Below are positions 19,953-44,457 of a DNA stretch of 48,428 nucleotides, one piece after another. The stretch is from a virus (Duplodnaviria; Heunggongvirae; Uroviricota; Caudoviricetes), in IMG/VR virus record IMGVR_UViG_3300045988_145381, one strand, 5' to 3'. The notes under the pieces are model-generated. The model was given only the letters and a program-made list of their open reading frames with translations. It searched no databases and was not told the origin of the DNA. The position numbers were made by a program, and so were the translations under genes. Positions within the stretch are counted from its first letter, which is position 1; each line of letters begins with the position of its first letter.

Positions 19953-21809
19953 CTATATGGTTACGCCTTTACTTATAACTCTACGGCGTCTTCTACGTAT
20001 ACCTGACGAGTTCTGCACATACACATTACCTCGCATTTCCTGTTCGGCAAGCCAGTTAAAATTAGGGTTCAGAATTTCCATCGCGGCAGTTGCATAGTTA
20101 CGGCAATCAAGAGGCTCGTTACGCTCGTAGACTTTCACCCACTTTTCTTTTGTCTGCCCATTTTTATATTCAAATATTTTCTTCTCTGATAATAATCCTT
20201 TAAAGTATTCGGTATCATATCCTCTGTCAGAATCTAATGGGAAATGCATATAACCAGGACCAGGATCATGTAGTTTAATTCTTGCCATGATGGTCCCTTT
20301 ACCATCATCAACCCCCAAATTAAACAACATAGCACCCACACGGTTATTATTACTTGGCTTTCCTATAAATGGTAAACCTACCCCACCACGCCCCCTGATA
20401 GAGTATATTCGCCTTGATTCTCTCGGCTTAGTAAAGCGATATACCTCTGTCGTAAAATGCCCACCAGAGTCAATACAAACGGAAGAAATCTGTAATTTTC
20501 GACCGTCACGGAATGACCAGCTACGGAGTAAGTATTCATCAAGTTGTTTCCAGACAACATCTTGTGCGGGATCACCTGGGAATATTTTATATTCTATCCC
20601 CCATGACTCCTTACCTTTTCCCCAACCGACCAATTCACAAACTAAATACGTGTCCTGTACGTCAACACCAGCACTTAACAATAAAACATCATCTGGTAAA
20701 AACTCTTCAAACCTTATTCTGCGTTGCAACAAGTATTCAGGATCGATATCGTCTTTAGCATCCTCTTTCCATGGCTCACCCAGCTTAAGGTTAATAAACT
20801 CCATTAATCCATTTTTATCGCGGTTTCTGGTTGCTTCCGTAAATTCTTCAACCAGCTCTGACAATGCAACCCACGGGGAGTAAAGACTGTTAATATGAAA
20901 ACCAACAATACCTTTAACTCCAGTATGTTCAGCTATCCATACCCCCTTCGCCAACCAATCAACGTCTGGTTTACCAGATCCGCGCATAATCCCGCCGCAC
21001 TCACAGCACTCATATCTGGCCGTTTCCGGTAACGCCTCACCTGAATCGCTCTTATCCCATCTGACTTGCGACCATTTCATCACCTGCATGGTGCCACAAC
21101 ATGGGCAAGGAACATGGTAGTAACGCTGATCGGAGAGCTTAAACCACTTGTGGATTTTGCTCGTTTCCTCCAAAACAGGAGTAGAAACAAAAACTTTCTT
21201 ACGATTATGAAAGTTGGTAGTACGCTGAATACCTAGTTTTAGTGGGTCGCCCTCCTGCGTCACACCGTAACGATCAATCTCATCAGCTAACAGTATTCGA
21301 ATTGGCCTGGATGCAAGACCTGCTGGGGAATTAGCACCAACAAGTGCTATATATCCACCAGCGTAATGCTTCATACGTATAGTCGTGCTGGACTTTTTGG
21401 CTGCACCGCGCCCCTCTTTCCCTTCATGCAGCTTGTGTTTCAAACCAGGGGAATATTTGAACGTCGGATCAATACGCTCTTTTGAAAAAGCCTCAGCCGC
21501 CTCTACCGTTGGATAAATCATCAACTGAGGAGATGGCTCCTGATCTGCAAAGTAACCCATAACATTTAGCTGTAATTCGGATTTACCAATTTGCGAGCTA
21601 CATTGCATCACTACTGTTTCTGTATCAGCGTCACCAATAACATCCATTGGTTCACGCAAATATGGCACTCGGCTTGTACGCCACGGCCCTGGCTCTGGAG
21701 ACGTTCCCGGCGCTACATGACGATACTTATCAGCCCATTCGGAAACAGTTAGCCGTGATTTAGGGCGAAGCGCACGGAAAAAAGCGGTGCTCCATACTGT
21801 TTCGCCCAT
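19953..21809 (-). CDS. terminase large subunit (lambda gpA-like)
   Basis: 618-aa ORF following the small-subunit gene; lambda A-like size and order. Confidence 0.8.
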   Translation of the reverse strand: MGETVWSTAFFRALRPKSRLTVSEWADKYRHVAPGTSPEPGPWRTSRVPYLREPMDVIGDADTETVVMQCSSQIGKSELQLNVMGYFADQEPSPQLMIYPTVEAAEAFSKERIDPTFKYSPGLKHKLHEGKEGRGAAKKSSTTIRMKHYAGGYIALVGANSPAGLASRPIRILLADEIDRYGVTQEGDPLKLGIQRTTNFHNRKKVFVSTPVLEETSKIHKWFKLSDQRYYHVPCPCCGTMQVMKWSQVRWDKSDSGEALPETARYECCECGGIMRGSGKPDVDWLAKGVWIAEHTGVKGIVGFHINSLYSPWVALSELVEEFTEATRNRDKNGLMEFINLKLGEPWKEDAKDDIDPEYLLQRRIRFEEFLPDDVLLLSAGVDVQDTYLVCELVGWGKGKESWGIEYKIFPGDPAQDVVWKQLDEYLLRSWSFRDGRKLQISSVCIDSGGHFTTEVYRFTKPRESRRIYSIRGRGGVGLPFIGKPSNNNRVGAMLFNLGVDDGKGTIMARIKLHDPGPGYMHFPLDSDRGYDTEYFKGLLSEKKIFEYKNGQTKEKWVKVYERNEPLDCRNYATAAMEILNPNFNWLAEQEMRGNVYVQNSSGIRRRRRRVISKGVTI

Positions 21810-26940: not shown

Positions 26941-27093
26941 TTACTTTCGATAGAAATCAAGGCGCATTTGCTCCCGCTTAAGCCGAAAAGCTCTCTGCGC
27001 CACTAAGATGCGCCACAGGACACCAGCAATAACCACCAGCGAGATACAAAAACACACGGCCACAACCATCAGAAAAATGCCAACACCATTCAT
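26941..27093 (-). CDS. small hydrophobic membrane peptide (50 aa, MNGVGIFLMVVAVCFCISLVVIAGVLWRIL...)
   Basis: Read directly from the sequence (below the ORF-track size cut-off); ATGA overlap with the upstream 68-aa gene; hairpin terminator follows. Confidence 0.4.
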   Translation of the reverse strand: MNGVGIFLMVVAVCFCISLVVIAGVLWRILVAQRAFRLKREQMRLDFYRK

Positions 27094-27296
27094 GAAACTA
27101 TCCATTCTTCAATGAATATCTCCAGTAATGTCAAGAGATACGCCGTCCCCAGCGCGGTTCCTACCGATATAGCTAAGACAAACCTCAAAGATAACGAGGT
27201 GTCTTTCGCTTTTCTCCAGACGTAAGCGCCAGCCAGAAATACCAACAAATCTCTTATTGGAAGCGGAAACCAGAACAAATCACTCGGCAAGTCCAC
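27090..27296 (-). CDS. small membrane protein (68 aa, two predicted TM segments)
   Basis: Hydrophobic ORF coupled to both neighbours. Confidence 0.4.
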   Translation of the reverse strand: MDLPSDLFWFPLPIRDLLVFLAGAYVWRKAKDTSLSLRFVLAISVGTALGTAYLLTLLEIFIEEWIVS

Positions 27297-27298
27297 GG

Positions 27299-27766
27299 TT
27301 ATATCCTTCCATTCATTTTTATCGGATGACCAGATAGCCTTACGCAGTTGAGCTGTAAAGCTCCGGTATCAACTAAATAATCAACTAACATGATTAGAGA
27401 TTCATATTCAGCCAGATAGCTAACCTGACGCATTCGACCGCCGTTGTTCTCCAGAATGTCGGCCACCTTTGCAGCCAACTCGCTTAGACAGGAGAACTTA
27501 TTCCCATATATCGTTTTATACTCGCGCTTCTGGCATTCTTCTGGCATTCTTCTGGCTTGCGGCTGGTTATCGAGAGCTATCAGCGACCGATAACTATCAA
27601 GGAAGTCCACAATCTCATTCAGGCACTCTTTGGCTGCCTCATCGTGACTTTTTCCGTATGCTTCATGGAGGACTTTCATCCTCATCATTGCTCCGTCACA
27701 CATAATCGAAAGCGCGTAAAGCACATCACTAATCGCCATTTCTTTTTTGGTGCTTGTCGAAGGCAT
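27299..27766 (-). CDS. hypothetical protein (first gene of a terminator-flanked moron)
   Basis: 155-aa ORF with aggaga Shine-Dalgarno; terminator upstream; contains an 11-bp tandem repeat at 27531..27560. Confidence 0.5.
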   Translation of the reverse strand: MPSTSTKKEMAISDVLYALSIMCDGAMMRMKVLHEAYGKSHDEAAKECLNEIVDFLDSYRSLIALDNQPQARRMPEECQKREYKTIYGNKFSCLSELAAKVADILENNGGRMRQVSYLAEYESLIMLVDYLVDTGALQLNCVRLSGHPIKMNGRI

Positions 27767-27773
27767 CCCATGT

Positions 27774-27800
27774 TCTCCTTTGTCTGGATGTAAAAAAGCC
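27774..27800 (-). terminator. rho-independent terminator
   Basis: gcctcggcaattgccggggc hairpin followed by tttttt on the minus strand. Confidence 0.55.
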
Positions 27801-27840: not shown

Positions 27841-28041
27841 TTAATGCTCGCGTCGTCCGGCGACAACTTCGGATTTGTATTTCAGGTCGCCCAGCAAGAA
27901 TTGCAGTTTAAGCATCTTTGCCGCCGTGTAGTTCCCTGATTCCACAACCTCTTTCATGAGGTCATAAACGGCCGCTACATCATCAGCCAGGAACTCTTTG
28001 CGTTGCTGCTCAGTCGCACGTTTGAAGGAAATACGCATCAC
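27841..28041 (-). CDS. hypothetical protein
   Basis: 66-aa ORF coupled to 28038..28307. Confidence 0.35.
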   Translation of the reverse strand: MMRISFKRATEQQRKEFLADDVAAVYDLMKEVVESGNYTAAKMLKLQFLLGDLKYKSEVVAGRREH

Positions 28042-28314: not shown

Positions 28315-28425
28315 TCTCCGGTTTAACCAGGGCGGGTATCGCTCGGTTTCGGGTATAACCTTAGGAAATTTTTTCCCACCTGTAAAGCACTTTTTATATA
28401 AATCTATAATTATATAATTCTATGA
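28315..28425 (-). promoter_or_regulatory. conserved promoter-leader element, copy 1
   Basis: Near-identical to 34827..34940 and 44347..44457; gene-direction read gives TTTACA-17bp-TAAGGT, a -10-like TATACC, a conserved leader and ggaga Shine-Dalgarno; AT-rich palindrome upstream. Confidence 0.6.
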
Positions 28426-29391: not shown

Positions 29392-29560
29392 ATATTTGAT
29401 CTGTTTGTCTGGTGTGGCGCCGCGCACGAAAATCCCAGCCAATAAATTCAGGATTTTTGGGCGCGGCGGCATATCAGACAAACATGGTTGATGCGTGCGC
29501 CCATAAGAAAAGCGCATAGAATGTTGTAACTATATATTTATATAATTATAGAAATATATA

Positions 29561-29770
29561 TTACTTTCGGCAGTTGATTTCCCATGCCCTGTTATGAGCC
29601 AGAATATCTTTCTTTGTCTGGCGGTCCATAACATCGATGTCGTGATCAGTCAGGTAGATGGGCTTTACCCAATCACAGGCGGTATCAACCACCACCGGGA
29701 CGCTTCCACGACTCCCGCAGCTCGCGATCAACATCGTCATCAGCCATATGGTTAACACTCTGCTGTACAT
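29561..29770 (-). CDS. o-spanin (Rz1-like lipoprotein)
   Basis: 69-aa ORF with lipobox-like LIASC, out of frame inside the 3' part of the i-spanin ORF. Confidence 0.55.
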   Translation of the reverse strand: MYSRVLTIWLMTMLIASCGSRGSVPVVVDTACDWVKPIYLTDHDIDVMDRQTKKDILAHNRAWEINCRK

Positions 29771-29963
29771 TCCCCACCTCTTTTGTCACTTCTATACGCC
29801 GCTCCGCAGTGGCTTTTACGGCGGCTGCATTCTCATTAATGCGCTGCTTTTCAGCTTCATATTCGGCCTTTTCTCGCCCCTTCATACGACCAAAACCAAA
29901 TGCGCCGAATGCAACTAATATAATGGTGCCGATAAATGACAAAACGGCTTTCAAACCAGTCAT
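29685..29963 (-). CDS. i-spanin (Rz-like)
   Basis: 92-aa ORF with N-terminal TM segment and charged coiled region; immediately downstream of the endolysin. Confidence 0.55.
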   Translation of the reverse strand: MTGLKAVLSFIGTIILVAFGAFGFGRMKGREKAEYEAEKQRINENAAAVKATAERRIEVTKEVGNVQQSVNHMADDDVDRELRESWKRPGGG

Positions 29964-30502
29964 ACCACCACTCGCTCTTTCATCCAGCCATAGACAAACG
30001 ACTCATTTGCTTCGCGTTTCTCCGCCAGGTCCAGATAACGGTCGCCCTGCGTACAGTTAAGGGCCGTCAGCATTACCCGTTCGCCGTCTTTTCCCCGATT
30101 CCCAAGATAAGCACGTAATGCCGCAATGGTGCGCGGGCCGATTCGCCCATCCACATCCATATCTGGATACAACTTCCCGCCACGGTTGAAAACATTCAGC
30201 CAACGTTGAAGCATCTTCGTAGCCACAGTCGGCCCCATGTTGACGCCCGTATCGCACATCTCAGCCGCAATATCAGGGGAAAATTGCGCCACCTGGTCAA
30301 AACGAGGCCCATACCAATAATCACCTTCAAGAATCATCAGAGCCTGTTCTCGCGTCAGATCTCGCATATCGCCACGGTATCCGTGAGCACGGGCAGTATT
30401 CTGAGTGATGCCCCACATTGTTGGGCCTCCCTTGTCGTCAGGGTGATCAACATAACCGCCCTCTTTTCCAAGAATGCTGTTAAAAATCTCATCTTTGGTC
30501 AT
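29960..30502 (-). CDS. endolysin, GH108-type muramidase with C-terminal peptidoglycan-binding region
   Basis: 180-aa ORF; N-terminal ...GKEGGYVDHPDDKGGPTMWGIT... motif characteristic of GH108 lysozymes. Confidence 0.8.
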   Translation of the reverse strand: MTKDEIFNSILGKEGGYVDHPDDKGGPTMWGITQNTARAHGYRGDMRDLTREQALMILEGDYWYGPRFDQVAQFSPDIAAEMCDTGVNMGPTVATKMLQRWLNVFNRGGKLYPDMDVDGRIGPRTIAALRAYLGNRGKDGERVMLTALNCTQGDRYLDLAEKREANESFVYGWMKERVVV

Positions 30503-30785
30503 GATTAAATCCTAATGCGTCAACTATCCGCGCCAGATTGCCCCTGAAATACAGAACAACGATGCAGATAATCAGATTTCCAATAACCACCAGCCAGTGG
30601 GATTCTTGATAAAGACCGAACACATAACGGAAGGGAACATTGGCGTATACAATGACGTAGATATAAGCTAGAAAGGAAACAAATGGACGATGCCTGGAGT
30701 CTTTCCGTCGATAAAGCATCAGCGCCATTACTATTACTGTGCAAAGCACCGCATTAATCAGTGCTGACGGGTCACTGCTTACCAT
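30489..30785 (-). CDS. membrane protein, possible holin or antiholin partner
   Basis: About 3 TM segments; between the holin and the endolysin; start uncertain (ORF track 30489..30821). Confidence 0.4.
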   Translation of the reverse strand: MVSSDPSALINAVLCTVIVMALMLYRRKDSRHRPFVSFLAYIYVIVYANVPFRYVFGLYQESHWLVVIGNLIICIVVLYFRGNLARIVDALGFNHDQR

Positions 30786-31167
30786 TTGAACCCCCTCCAC
30801 GTAAGCGGGAAAGCATTCCAAAGATGCTACCGAGATCCTGGCTGTTTACGAACGTGAGGATTTTAATGGTCAATGCAGCCACAATAACCGCACCAAGCGC
30901 ATCCAGAGGACGATCGTTGTAGCTGGTCCATTTGGCAAGAAATGAGCCAACTAACGGCGCTCCAATCACTCCAACAATGAACGATGTAAAGAAATAGCCA
31001 ATCAGCTTGAGACGGCTAATATTCACCGCTGTAGCAACATAGAAAACAGCGCCAGCAAATGCCCCGAATACAACGCCGTAATCAATACCAGTTGCAATAC
31101 CAAAAACGCTGGCACCCATCAGGCCACCAGCAGCAACGGCCGTACCGGAAATTGGTTCTGCTGACAT
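30772..31167 (-). CDS. holin (putative)
   Basis: 131-aa multi-TM protein at the head of the lysis cassette; gaggat Shine-Dalgarno; terminator immediately upstream. Confidence 0.55.
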   Translation of the reverse strand: MSAEPISGTAVAAGGLMGASVFGIATGIDYGVVFGAFAGAVFYVATAVNISRLKLIGYFFTSFIVGVIGAPLVGSFLAKWTSYNDRPLDALGAVIVAALTIKILTFVNSQDLGSIFGMLSRLRGGGSNGKQ

Positions 31168-33684: not shown

Positions 33685-33761
33685 TGTCGAGGCGTCCTTA
33701 TACATTTATATAAATATATAATTCTATATACAGCGGGAGACATCCCGCCGTATGCTTACTG

Positions 33762-34829: not shown

Positions 34830-34940
34830 CAGATTTCTCCGGTTTAACCAGGGCGGGTATCGCTCGGTTTCGGGTATAACCTTAGGAAATTTTTTCCCAC
34901 CTGTAAAGCACTTTTTATATAAATTATATAATTATATATT
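34827..34940 (-). promoter_or_regulatory. conserved promoter-leader element, copy 2
   Basis: Near-identical to copies 1 and 3; lies between the Q-like gene and the DUF3560-like gene. Confidence 0.6.
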
Positions 34941-38655: not shown

Positions 38656-38683
38656 CTGCAAGCGGGCTAACGCCCGCTTATAT

Positions 38684-38790
38684 GATTATAGATTTATATA
38701 ATTATATAAAACGCTTTTCATCCGCCAAAAAGTTGGTTATGCTTACCTCGTTCTATAAATATAGATTTATAGAATTATATAACCAAACAC
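38684..38790. repeat. AT-rich palindromic repeats upstream of parF-like gene (candidate centromere/operator)
   Basis: Perfect 16-bp palindrome ttatataattatataa at 38694..38709 and related tatagatttatagaattatataa at 38764..38786; a third copy at 39458..39490. Confidence 0.5.
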
Positions 38791-39459
38791 ATGGAGTCTC
38801 GACAAATGACTATCTCTGTAGGTATTTTCAACGGAAAAGGCGGCGTAACCAAATCAACAATTGCCCGTGCTTTAGCAGTTGCTTATGCAAAGGCTGGCTG
38901 GAATGTATGCCTGATCGATATGGATGTGCTTAACGGAACGGTAACGCGTTGGGTACAACGCAGAATGGCCAACAATATCGAACCAGCAATCGCGGCGCAG
39001 CCGTGCGGCACACCATCACAAGTCCAGAAAATCATCGAATCAGAAGTATACGACCTGGTTATCGTCGATGGCGGTGCCTACGCATCTGAATCAGTACCGA
39101 AGCTCTCTGAATTTCTGGATATGGTTATTTTGCCAACCAGATTCTCTACCGATGACCTGGAAACCACCGTTAACACTGCTCACGGCATCGTTAAAAAGGG
39201 TGTACCAATCAAGAAAATTTGCATGGTGTTTTCCGGCGCGGCTGAAAACGAAGCTGACTATATTGAAGCCCAAGAGTACCTGGCTAATACGCCATACTTT
39301 GTTGTTGATAAGTACATTCCCCACAAGCCAGCTCTGAGCAAAGCTCAGGATAAGGGCTTAAGCCTCATTGAGTGCTCATACGTTGCGCCACGCAAAAAGG
39401 CAGACGACGTTATTCAGGGGATTATCAACCAGCTTGAGGCTCTGACTACTGCCGCGTAA
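38791..39459 (+). CDS. ParA/ParF-type partition ATPase
   Basis: 222-aa ORF with deviant Walker A (GIFNGKGGVTKST); start may be the second Met at 38806. Confidence 0.7.
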   Translation: MESRQMTISVGIFNGKGGVTKSTIARALAVAYAKAGWNVCLIDMDVLNGTVTRWVQRRMANNIEPAIAAQPCGTPSQVQKIIESEVYDLVIVDGGAYASESVPKLSEFLDMVILPTRFSTDDLETTVNTAHGIVKKGVPIKKICMVFSGAAENEADYIEAQEYLANTPYFVVDKYIPHKPALSKAQDKGLSLIECSYVAPRKKADDVIQGIINQLEALTTAA

Positions 39460-39502
39460 TATATAATTATAGTTTTATAGATTTATATAAGAGGGGATAC
39501 AC

Positions 39503-39751
39503 ATGGCCGCACCATCAAAACCACCAAAGAAGAACAGCAAAGGCGTACCGCCATCGATCGAACAACCGCAGGTTTTCGACCCGACTGAAACGCCAACCAG
39601 AACCAAATCAGGTGGGGCACAAATGGCGTTTAACGTCGACCCTGAATTTAAACGCGAGTACAAAACGTTCGCCAGCTCAATGGATATGTCATTGAAAGAA
39701 GTGCTGACAAAATCTTTTGAGTTACTCAAGGCTCAATACAACCAGAAGTAA
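39503..39751 (+). CDS. ParG-like small ribbon-helix-helix partition protein (putative)
   Basis: 82-aa ORF immediately after the ParA-like gene; flexible basic N-terminus and C-terminal strand-helix-helix-like segment. Confidence 0.5.
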   Translation: MAAPSKPPKKNSKGVPPSIEQPQVFDPTETPTRTKSGGAQMAFNVDPEFKREYKTFASSMDMSLKEVLTKSFELLKAQYNQK

Positions 39752-39967: not shown

Positions 39968-39990
39968 AACCATAAAAAAGGCCCCCGAAG
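39968..39990 (-). terminator. rho-independent terminator (minus-strand orientation)
   Basis: ggcccccgaaggggcc hairpin with a T-run on the minus strand. Confidence 0.5.
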
Positions 39991-40001
39991 GGGCCTAATC
40001 G

Positions 40002-40124
40002 CTACTTGCTGCTAATGTTTATCGTCACATTTAGAGCGTTATCAGTAATCTTCCAACCCTCCCCATGTGGCGTAAACAAAGCTCCAGTAACAACGATAAA
40101 AATACACATACAGTATTTTTTCAT
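40002..40124 (-). CDS. small hydrophobic peptide (40 aa, MKKYCMCIFIVVTGALFTPHGEGW...)
   Basis: Read directly from sequence; Shine-Dalgarno-like aaggg upstream; terminator 39968..39990 immediately downstream. Confidence 0.25.
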   Translation of the reverse strand: MKKYCMCIFIVVTGALFTPHGEGWKITDNALNVTINISSK

Positions 40125-40520
40125 TGTATGGCCCTTACAGGCCGTTTCACGGCATCCCCACCGACGAAAACAACGCGAGAGCAAGCACGGCTGCTTGTGC
40201 TTGCATGTACGGCAACGGAGAATCCTCCCCTAAAGTCGGTGCCCGGGTGCGAATCGGCGGGAAGGTCCACAGGTATTTTACGATTATTTTAAGATTAGTA
40301 ATAGGAAAGAAATTAAACGAAAAAACTCGTTTATTTTCACAAAATCAGTAACCTACCCACAATCTGTGAGTTTGCAGGCACAACAAGAACCACAATTTTT
40401 TGAAGCATAATAGTGGACTATTATTACCTTTTGGGTAAAATTAACTTGCTGCTTGTGCTTGCGTGGTTGTTTATACAACAACGTAATGCTGAAAGGACCG
40501 CGAATCCGATCAGCACGAAA

Positions 40521-40549: not shown

Positions 40550-40690
40550 TTTCTGCCTACCAATAAACCCACGCTATGTGGTTGTCTCTGTTAAAATCCC
40601 GCCGTATTGACATGAATGCGCCATTGGTGGACACTTTCCGAGCCGTAGCAAAATCTACGGTCGGGATTGGCGTCCCGATTGCACAATGGC

Positions 40691-40716
40691 GCATACCGCG
40701 TTAGCGGTTTTTTTAT
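40691..40716 (+). terminator. intrinsic terminator-like hairpin in the ant leader region
   Basis: accgc-gtta-gcggt stem-loop followed by 7 T. Confidence 0.45.
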
Positions 40717-40876
40717 GCGTAAAGCACTGCTACACCCAAATTATGGTGGGGCGTGCGGGGGCGGAGAAATCCGCGCCGGGTTTGTCATTGTGCCGGTTAC
40801 GCCAACCCTGTACGTCTCACCACCATATTGATTGGCGTCATTGGTGGTGATAGTTCCTTTAATCGGAGATATCACA

Positions 40877-44346: not shown

Positions 44347-44457
44347 TCTCCGGTTTAACCAGGGCGGGTATCGCTCGGTTTCGGGTATAACCTTAGGAAT
44401 TTTTTTCCCACCTGTAAAGCACTTTTTATATAAATATATAATTATATAATTCTATGA
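44347..44457 (-). promoter_or_regulatory. conserved promoter-leader element, copy 3
   Basis: Near-identical to copies 1 and 2, including the upstream ttatataattctatga motif. Confidence 0.6.

Follow-up and report, generated by a model that had tools for sequence, protein, structure and literature searches.

The described systems closest to the locus reported here are the morons of lambdoid phages (the HK97/HK022 concept, exemplified by the superinfection-exclusion gene gp15 of HK97), the regulators of lysis timing (lambda S105/S107, phage 21 S21-68, P1 LydA/LydB, and T4 T/RI/RIII), and the small inner-membrane superinfection-exclusion proteins (T4 Imm and Sp, P22 SieA, and HK97 gp15); type I toxins of the hok/mok kind and the RexA/RexB pair offer further points of comparison. 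The locus is a cassette of three genes, named A, B, and C, on the minus strand of the viral record IMGVR_UViG_3300045988_145381 (Caudoviricetes), and the whole stretch of 48,428 nt that was analyzed is referred to as the window. Because of its plasmid-borne matches and the annotations of a close relative, the window is regarded as a circular phage-plasmid of about 48 kb from Escherichia. Sequence comparison indicates that A-B-C is best explained as a long-standing, lineage-specific operon, that is, a fixed and fast-evolving accessory module rather than a recently inserted autonomous moron. It is one of the few conserved yet fast-changing parts of the lineage of unknown function, two of its genes (B and C) are routinely missed by annotation, and it is best filed as an uncharacterised member of the phage accessory cassettes with very small membrane proteins.

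The initial annotation had described a terminator-bounded unit of one soluble and two small, tightly coupled membrane proteins, and all of these elements were found on the minus strand. Gene A (27766-27299, ATG start, TAA stop) encodes a soluble, helical protein of 155 aa, and the strong Shine-Dalgarno sequence reported before it is the AAGGAG at 27780-27775, read from the sequence 8 nt before the ATG. Gene B (27296-27090, minus strand; GTG start, GGAAGGA upstream, TGA at 27092-27090) encodes 68 aa and begins 2 nt after the TAA of A in the window. Gene C (27093-26941, minus strand) encodes 50 aa from an ATG start that overlaps the stop of B in an ATGA at 27093, in agreement with the overlapping stop and start codons noted earlier; an alternative in-frame ATG at 27105 gives 54 aa. 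The tight spacing and overlap of the three genes suggest translational coupling. The intrinsic terminator in front of A (T1), identified by terminator scan and folding on the minus strand, consists of the stem-loop GAGCCTCGGCAATTGCCGGGGCTT at 27819-27796 and the T-run TTTTTT at 27795-27790; it begins 22 nt past the stop of the upstream 66-aa gene and folds at -18.8 kcal/mol (z = -5.9), with none of 200 shuffles as good. This terminator had been predicted and is present, but its placement at 27774..27800 lay about 20 nt too far downstream and took in, besides the T-run and the Shine-Dalgarno sequence, no more than the 3′ end of the stem; for this reason the end of the reported unit at 27800 cuts through the hairpin. 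The position of the second terminator (T2) was exact: the same procedures placed its stem-loop, AGCCTCGCGGTGTCGCGGGGCT, at 26933-26912 on the minus strand, followed by TTTTTATTTT (tail to 26903), and it folds at -16.6 kcal/mol (z = -5.0), again unmatched in 200 shuffles. Within 6 kb, 12 terminator-like sites were found, compared with 6.0 ± 2.5 in shuffled sequence, and T1 and T2 were among the strongest three. The stretch from the T1 hairpin to the Shine-Dalgarno sequence is kept at the nucleotide level in the Salmonella and Citrobacter relatives; at the T2 position the relatives have a terminator of different sequence. It was also observed that T1 (27818-27796) and T2 (26933-26912) have identical stem arms, AGCCTCG...CGGGGCT, followed by T-runs, and the cassette is therefore flanked by short direct repeats. 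In one related locus (L028), the other terminator type occupies the T1 position. Exchange between terminators seems to reshuffle the cassette region.

The layout had been called that of a classic moron, which holds for the terminators and for the mosaic nature of the region and does not hold for promoter, distribution, or composition. Like morons, the cassette consists of small accessory genes that are foreign to the neighboring modules, lies in the late region, is closed by an intrinsic terminator (T2), and occupies a slot that is variable: phage phiP27, which is unrelated to the window, has small genes of other kinds, one of them a lipoprotein ORF, at the same place before its homolog of the downstream gene. 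Unlike morons, it has no detected promoter, its composition is ordinary (GC content of 0.44-0.48, compared with 0.46-0.50 in the flanks), it is near-universal and syntenic in E. coli, Salmonella, and Citrobacter, and it shows no similarity to known moron products. A cassette query matched 69 complete E. coli genomes, compared with 71 for the adjacent ParB genes, and A-B-C kept its own slot in every genus examined; the same slot is occupied in Salmonella and Citrobacter at 30-47% identity, with only the content varying. Since every relative carries the cassette, it is regarded as an old part of the lineage and not as a recent moron. The cassette evolves faster than its flanks, with 65 of its 69 records at 95-99% identity and 64 of the 71 ParB records at 99% or above. 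Within E. coli, dN/dS was 0.45-1.1 where computable, and changes were concentrated in the membrane segments; between the window and locus L004, C differed by seven nonsynonymous changes and no synonymous change. Recombination junctions were located just upstream of T1 (~27836) and inside the 3′ end of C (~26963-26968), and because of the latter there are at least four different C-terminal endings of C and the downstream gene is swapped. The junction in C, 7-10 codons before the stop, is recurrent (L002, L003, L005, and L007); the genes swapped in behind it include a DUF2513 gene (L005/L007) and a fragment annotated as “tail fiber assembly protein” (L003).

The sigma-70 scan detected no promoter-like site on the minus strand between 25500 and 31500, a scan that leaves activator-dependent promoters possible, and none on either strand that lies in the cassette or points toward it. 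The T-run of T1 and the ATG of A are only about 30 nt apart, and the best site there (TTGCCG, 17 nt, GACAAA) fails the criteria. With no promoter of their own detected and T1 in front, A, B, and C would be reached only by read-through of T1. The nearest upstream candidate on the minus strand, TTTACA (28386-28381) and TAAGGT (28363-28358) with a 17-nt spacer, is below the scan threshold and uncertain; its Citrobacter copy (TATGGT) passes the threshold. This candidate would express the 89-aa and 66-aa genes, which T1 closes off. Just upstream of it on the same strand is an AT-rich array of 8-bp-periodic repeats (28394-28425), one of eight repeat clusters in the window (the others at 29530-29558, 33698-33729, 34924-34939, 38678-38709, 38751-38782, 39459-39490, and 44426-44457). 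The repeat units are of the TATAATTA type, and the 13-mer TATAATTATATAA with up to two mismatches gave 38 hits, compared with 2.2 expected. Most clusters are located about 90 nt upstream of gene starts, namely those of the 89-aa gene, the tRNA, parA, and genes of the replication region, and they look like the operator arrays of one global regulator. Just after parA, at 39503-39751 on the plus strand, an 82-aa ORF has a disordered basic N-terminus and a C-terminal part that by eye looks like a ParG/omega-type ribbon-helix-helix; its product is a candidate binder of the repeat arrays.

These features bear on the function first suggested for the cassette, a moron-type module expressed in the lysogen, in which A and the membrane proteins protect the host-plasmid by exclusion, abortive infection, or toxin action. 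The terminators that bound the cassette, the confinement of the three families to one lineage, the mosaic region that changes faster than its flanks, and the unrelated small cargo in the phiP27 slot are all in line with such a module, and the repeat array that the nearest promoter candidate shares with parA and other non-structural genes hints at plasmid-state regulation. On the other hand, no promoter was found between T1 and A, a strong terminator stands directly before A (two in some relatives), the cassette is near-universal in the lineage instead of sporadic, its composition is that of the flanks, and neither PADLOC nor Pfam returned a match. A lysogen module is accordingly considered unlikely.

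Judged by comparison with diverged relatives, B and C are genuine genes, because their frames, membrane pattern, and coupling persist at 30-47% amino acid identity in Salmonella and Citrobacter. The initial annotation had named a lack of conservation of the small ORFs as a sign against it; instead, both frames are open in E. coli, S. Weltevreden, and Citrobacter-type relatives in which synonymous sites are saturated. In these deep comparisons, dN/dS was 0.2-0.75 where estimable, and the pattern of membrane helix and charged tail was kept. B has a conserved short hydrophobic segment and a basic loop (LLVFLAGAYVWRKAKDTSLSLRF), followed by one clear, variable membrane-spanning helix at about aa 38-62. 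C has an N-terminal membrane-spanning helix and a conserved basic tail, R-I-x-V-x-Q...KREQ, with a pI of 11.7, and is predicted to be a single-pass protein with its N-terminus out and its C-terminus in. The 50-aa ORF had been called unannotated, which proved incorrect: RefSeq annotates a 50/54-aa ORF in many relatives (e.g., WP_001014663.1), and the 68-aa ORF (B) is the one that is inconsistently annotated among public relatives. If A were the sole gene and B and C, or one of them, fortuitous frames in a 3′ untranslated region, this would fit the frequent omission of both by gene callers, the frameshift of C in Yersinia phage vB_YpM_41, and the several relatives without B; it would leave the open frames, membrane helix, charged motif, and start/stop coupling that are kept despite saturated synonymous sites, as well as ten C residues that do not vary in an alignment of seven variants (the window and six related loci), to coincidence. 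This possibility is barely credible and is largely refuted by the comparison. Within E. coli, B and C are both intact in six of seven related loci. In vB_YpM_41, a phage isolated as a virion, C is split into pieces of 33 aa and 41 aa (L002:5796-5960); the frameshift is either a sequencing error, or C is dispensable for plaques on Y. pestis EV76.

Protein A consists of a conserved N-terminal domain, a disordered linker or variable insert, and a conserved C-terminal domain. The N-domain is an acidic helical hairpin (about aa 10-60, pI 4.9) that was modeled by AlphaFold with a pLDDT of ~80-87. The C-terminal domain is basic (pI 8.7) and carries the motif YKTxYGxKFSxLSELAxKVAD...LVDTGxLxLN. Some forms of A add an optional beta-strand tail of the type SITVNSPAITV, which is absent from the A of the window. 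The window A carries an in-frame insertion of 12 nt, AGAAGAATGCCA, at 27542-27553 (minus strand), a near-tandem duplication of the adjacent GAAGAATGCCA that adds RRMP to the disordered, low-confidence linker and gives 155 aa instead of 151 aa; this 155-aa form is shared with another 90%-identity protein cluster of 77 member sequences. A matched PHROG 14707 along its entire length and PHROG 8319 in the N-domain alone, both of unknown function, and its best match among PDB sequences had an E-value of 1.4.

The variants of the cassette have a constant core and exchangeable parts. The S. Weltevreden plasmid NZ_LN890526 contains the same hairpin and Shine-Dalgarno sequence, followed by an A of 246 aa, a B of 67 aa that is 47% identical to the window B (tblastn), a C of 50 aa, and a terminator; A and B are joined by an ATGA overlap, and B and C by a 13-nt overlap. 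Locus L016 encodes an A of 265 aa, a B of 72 aa, and a C of 55 aa with overlaps of 11 nt (A-B) and 28 nt (B-C). The S. salamae plasmid CP053324 and Citrobacter contigs encode an A of 194 or 251 aa, a C of 55 aa directly after it (TGAATG), and a terminator, and have no B. In loci L028-L033, A is reduced to the N-domain (67 aa) or to the N-domain with a tail (97 aa) and is followed by a C of 50 aa with a GTG start; across the forms without B, the A-to-C junction is TGAATG, TAGTG, or a 13-nt gap. The variants comprise A151/155-B-C, A99-B-C, A246-B-C, A194/251-C, A67-C, and A97-C. The N-domain of A and C are present in every variant, with C in every locus that spans the site, and B, the C-terminal domain, the insert, and the beta-strand tail of A are variable. 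In a tblastn search of plasmids (PLSDB), 60 records matched A, and B and C each matched 59; every one of these plasmids was non-mobilizable, and the listed records were 46-52 kb in size except one of 94 kb. A was full-length in 20 of the 60, and most of the others, about 38, had the N-domain-only form of 99 aa. A word-indexed search of 5.8 billion proteins with two A queries retrieved 15 and 19 clusters, and an exhaustive HMMER profile search of 1.84 billion representatives gave 12 hits. At 90% identity, the A family and the C family are small, with a few dozen clusters each, mostly on plasmid-size contigs of up to ~54 kb. As far as these matches indicate, all three families are confined to this phage-plasmid lineage.

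The proposal that is tentatively preferred, with a standing that falls a little short of an even chance, is that A-B-C is an operon whose products are tethered to the membrane, are expressed by read-through, and take part in phage development. C would be a single-pass inner-membrane protein with its basic tail facing the cytoplasm, and this tail (pI 11.7) would dock the acidic N-domain hairpin of A (pI 4.9). Anchoring of A by C is proposed because the N-domain and C are invariant components of the cassette, carry opposite charges, and include a membrane helix in C. Docking would tether the variable effector parts of A, its C-terminal domain and/or beta-strand tail, to the membrane, and B would be an optional extra membrane subunit. 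Transcripts would arrive only through T1, either from the upstream candidate promoter or by antiterminated lytic transcription; with read-through as the only route, expression would be low or conditional. No antiterminator was recognizable in PHROG scans of ten other genes of the window, nine of which lie upstream of the lysis cassette. In the most speculative step, the complex would exert its effect at the inner membrane while the phage develops; the first choice of role is that it modulates lysis timing or holin function, and the second is that it blocks DNA entry by a superinfecting phage.

Several observations weigh against this proposal. A full set of lysis genes is already present in the window (for two holin-family proteins, an endolysin, an i-spanin, and an o-spanin), and A-B-C lies ~1.8 kb downstream of the o-spanin with two terminators between them. 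The repeat array shared with parA and the replication genes could be a sign that expression of the unit belongs to the plasmid state and not to lytic growth. The AlphaFold model of the window A is only of moderate quality (mean pLDDT of 64.5; C-terminal domain at 55-73), and the long 251-aa form was modeled with a pLDDT of 59.5 and a pTM of 0.29. Finally, the signal of selection in the membrane segments is suggestive only, since counts are small and recombination confounds it. A broader interpretation, which seems rather doubtful, is that C and the N-domain of A, joined by B or not, would form an undescribed membrane-tethering system with no homolog among known systems, in which a tiny anchor recruits an adaptor with swappable effectors and the membrane segments are under diversifying selection; if true, it would be a new kind of lysis-control or phage-exclusion device. 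A role in lysis timing or exclusion would establish a new protein family for those processes and a compact, genetically tractable example in which a modular soluble protein has very small membrane proteins as partners. Should the cassette have no phenotype, comparison of its diverged forms would still make a useful test of how such tiny genes can be called.

Remote-homology comparison, which the initial annotation had named as a check on the three proteins, returned only PHROGs of unknown function and no link to a solved fold. Pfam yielded nothing above threshold for A, B, or C, including no Hok-type family; PADLOC-DB contained no family matching these or three neighboring proteins; neither Pfam nor PHROGs gave a match of the lysis category (holin, antiholin, or spanin); no Rfam family was found within the cassette; and searches of the literature on the vB_YpM phages, ESBL3215, and the ATCC 25922 phage-plasmid found nothing on A, B, or C. 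Similar to holins, antiholins, and other lysis-timing regulators, B and C are very small membrane proteins with charged cytoplasmic tails and a small soluble partner near lysis genes, and in the phage contig L025 (see below) a small membrane protein and an A-like protein are encoded directly after the spanins. In contrast to these regulators, A-B-C has no Pfam or PHROG similarity and stands apart from a lysis cassette that is complete without it. Hydropathy and charge maps show a membrane helix and a charged C-terminal tail in both B and C; this pattern is too widespread to identify holins, and the topology predicted for C is likewise generic. B or C as a missing spanin was ruled out, since an i-spanin and an overlapping o-spanin with a lipobox are already present and neither B nor C has a lipobox.

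B and C resemble the small superinfection-exclusion proteins in size, predicted inner-membrane location, rapid evolution, and restriction to a single lineage. They differ in the lack of homology, in that T1 would hinder any expression of the cassette in the plasmid state, and in the obligatory soluble A, which has no counterpart among those proteins. As a hydrophobic peptide of ~50 aa with a start that overlaps the upstream frame, C recalls type I toxins (hok/mok); however, there is no Hok-type Pfam match, no sigma-70-like site in or directed at the cassette on either strand, and no Rfam hit in the cassette. In addition, the prediction places the charged domain of C in the cytoplasm, and C is never encoded without the N-domain of A. 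RexA/RexB also combine a soluble protein with a small membrane partner encoded beside it in a temperate element. Nevertheless, the cassette gave no PADLOC hit, B and C have one or two helices and not four, and A-B-C lies outside the immunity region and is not co-transcribed with a repressor.

Outside the lineage, the exhaustive profile search identified distant homologs of the C-terminal domain of A in two unrelated phage contigs (L025:3867-4405 and L027:4001-4708). The 30.6-kb contig L025 encodes a 134-aa homolog that has an ATGA overlap with a preceding 45-aa single-pass membrane protein with a basic tail; this pair directly follows genes for a holin, a CHAP endolysin, an i-spanin, and an o-spanin, and precedes the small and large terminase genes. 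In the contig L027, the homolog is located two genes after a holin and adjoins a homolog of the PHROG 1935 gene that lies downstream of the cassette in the window. The combination of an A-like protein and a tiny membrane protein between lysis and terminase genes therefore also occurs outside the lineage. Such neighborhoods raise the alternative that the cassette is an accessory for packaging or otherwise associated with DNA, in which the C-terminal domain of A binds DNA or the terminase region, C (with or without B) anchors it to the membrane, and both act with the PHROG 1935 protein, the ParB-like nuclease, and the methylase genes. The position of the L025 homolog immediately upstream of the terminase genes, the PHROG 1935 neighbor shared by L027 and the window, and the basic pI of 8.7 agree with this alternative, whereas no DNA-binding fold or family was detected for A and the C-terminal domain is missing from most E. 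coli copies. Because about 38 of the 60 plasmid records encode the N-domain only, the C-terminal domain is not essential for packaging, and a packaging function appears quite improbable.

In addition to T1, many relatives carry an extra terminator and a non-coding spacer of ~270 nt before the T1-type hairpin (L004:2227-2560, L010:1893-2230, L014:2163-2500, L016:543-880, L029:517-820, and L031:453-790). The spacer is absent from the window, where it would sit between 27841 and 27819. The spacer has a mean column identity of 86% across Escherichia, Salmonella, and Citrobacter, compared with only 32-60% identity in the flanking proteins. Its core, GACGACGGCGTTA..CGGTCGGGTTCCCACGGCGACGTAGTGAGGGAAAGG, does not vary, and an imperfectly paired hairpin of ~24 bp is predicted for it, with compensatory changes in only three of the predicted pairs. 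It had no Rfam hit and no conserved frame across relatives, and a 21-codon frame was not kept. An 8-codon leader peptide, MFDEFDGF, was considered since L004 differs there only by synonymous or stop-to-stop changes; it was dropped because it is deleted in L029/L030 and has no ATG in L031/L033. The spacer could be a leader or regulatory RNA for the cassette. In L031/L033 it is flanked by two T1-type hairpins, and its loss from the window could thus have occurred by recombination between terminators.

All genes around the cassette are on the minus strand. From the lysis side, the order is two holins, a GH108 endolysin, an i-spanin with an overlapping o-spanin, a tRNA, an MT-A70 methylase, an 89-aa gene, and the 66-aa gene that ends at 27841, followed by T1, A, B, C, T2, the PHROG 1935 protein, two ParB-domain proteins, and the terminase. 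The placement of the cassette between lysis and packaging genes was correctly recognized at the outset (lysis genes at 29561-31167 and large terminase at 19953-21809 by annotation, minus strand); the tRNA, the methylase, and the two small genes separate the lysis cassette from A. The probable o-spanin is a 69-aa ORF (29561-29770, minus strand) with the lipobox LIASC that overlaps the end of the 92-aa i-spanin gene and is unannotated in the RefSeq relative C311 p2.

One close relative, a plasmid with 98.4% identity across the cassette region, carries annotations for RepA, ParA, a RelE/ParE toxin-antitoxin pair, and an XRE regulator; its phage genes comprise a lysis cassette and those for terminase, portal, capsid, and a contractile tail, with a tail-fiber segment that is invertible. 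In complete E. coli genomes, 70 of the 71 places that matched the cassette query were on plasmids, and the listed records were mostly 46-52 kb. The lineage is common: of 5,426 complete E. coli genomes, about 70 gave a match, among them the reference strain ATCC 25922, whose plasmid NZ_CP009073.1 has the A99-B-C form. The plasmid pESBL3215 has the A151/155 form, and related elements are also known from Salmonella, Citrobacter, and Klebsiella. The 1.1-kb cassette region was also matched in the Yersinia phages vB_YpM_39, 41, and 44, close relatives of the window that are infectious phages isolated on Yersinia pestis. Membership in the “pSLy3” phage-plasmid group was considered and found to be wrong, as pSLy3 is 114 kb in size and related to SSU5.

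Elsewhere in the window, three RNA loci scored above the Rfam gathering score: ryfA at 39974-40270 on the minus strand (143.5 bits), isrK at 40642-40714 on the plus strand (67.3 bits), and a C4 antisense RNA at 40739-40827 on the plus strand (72.3 bits). These matches suggest that the phage-plasmid has a ryfA-type locus and an RNA-based immunity region like that of P1/P7.

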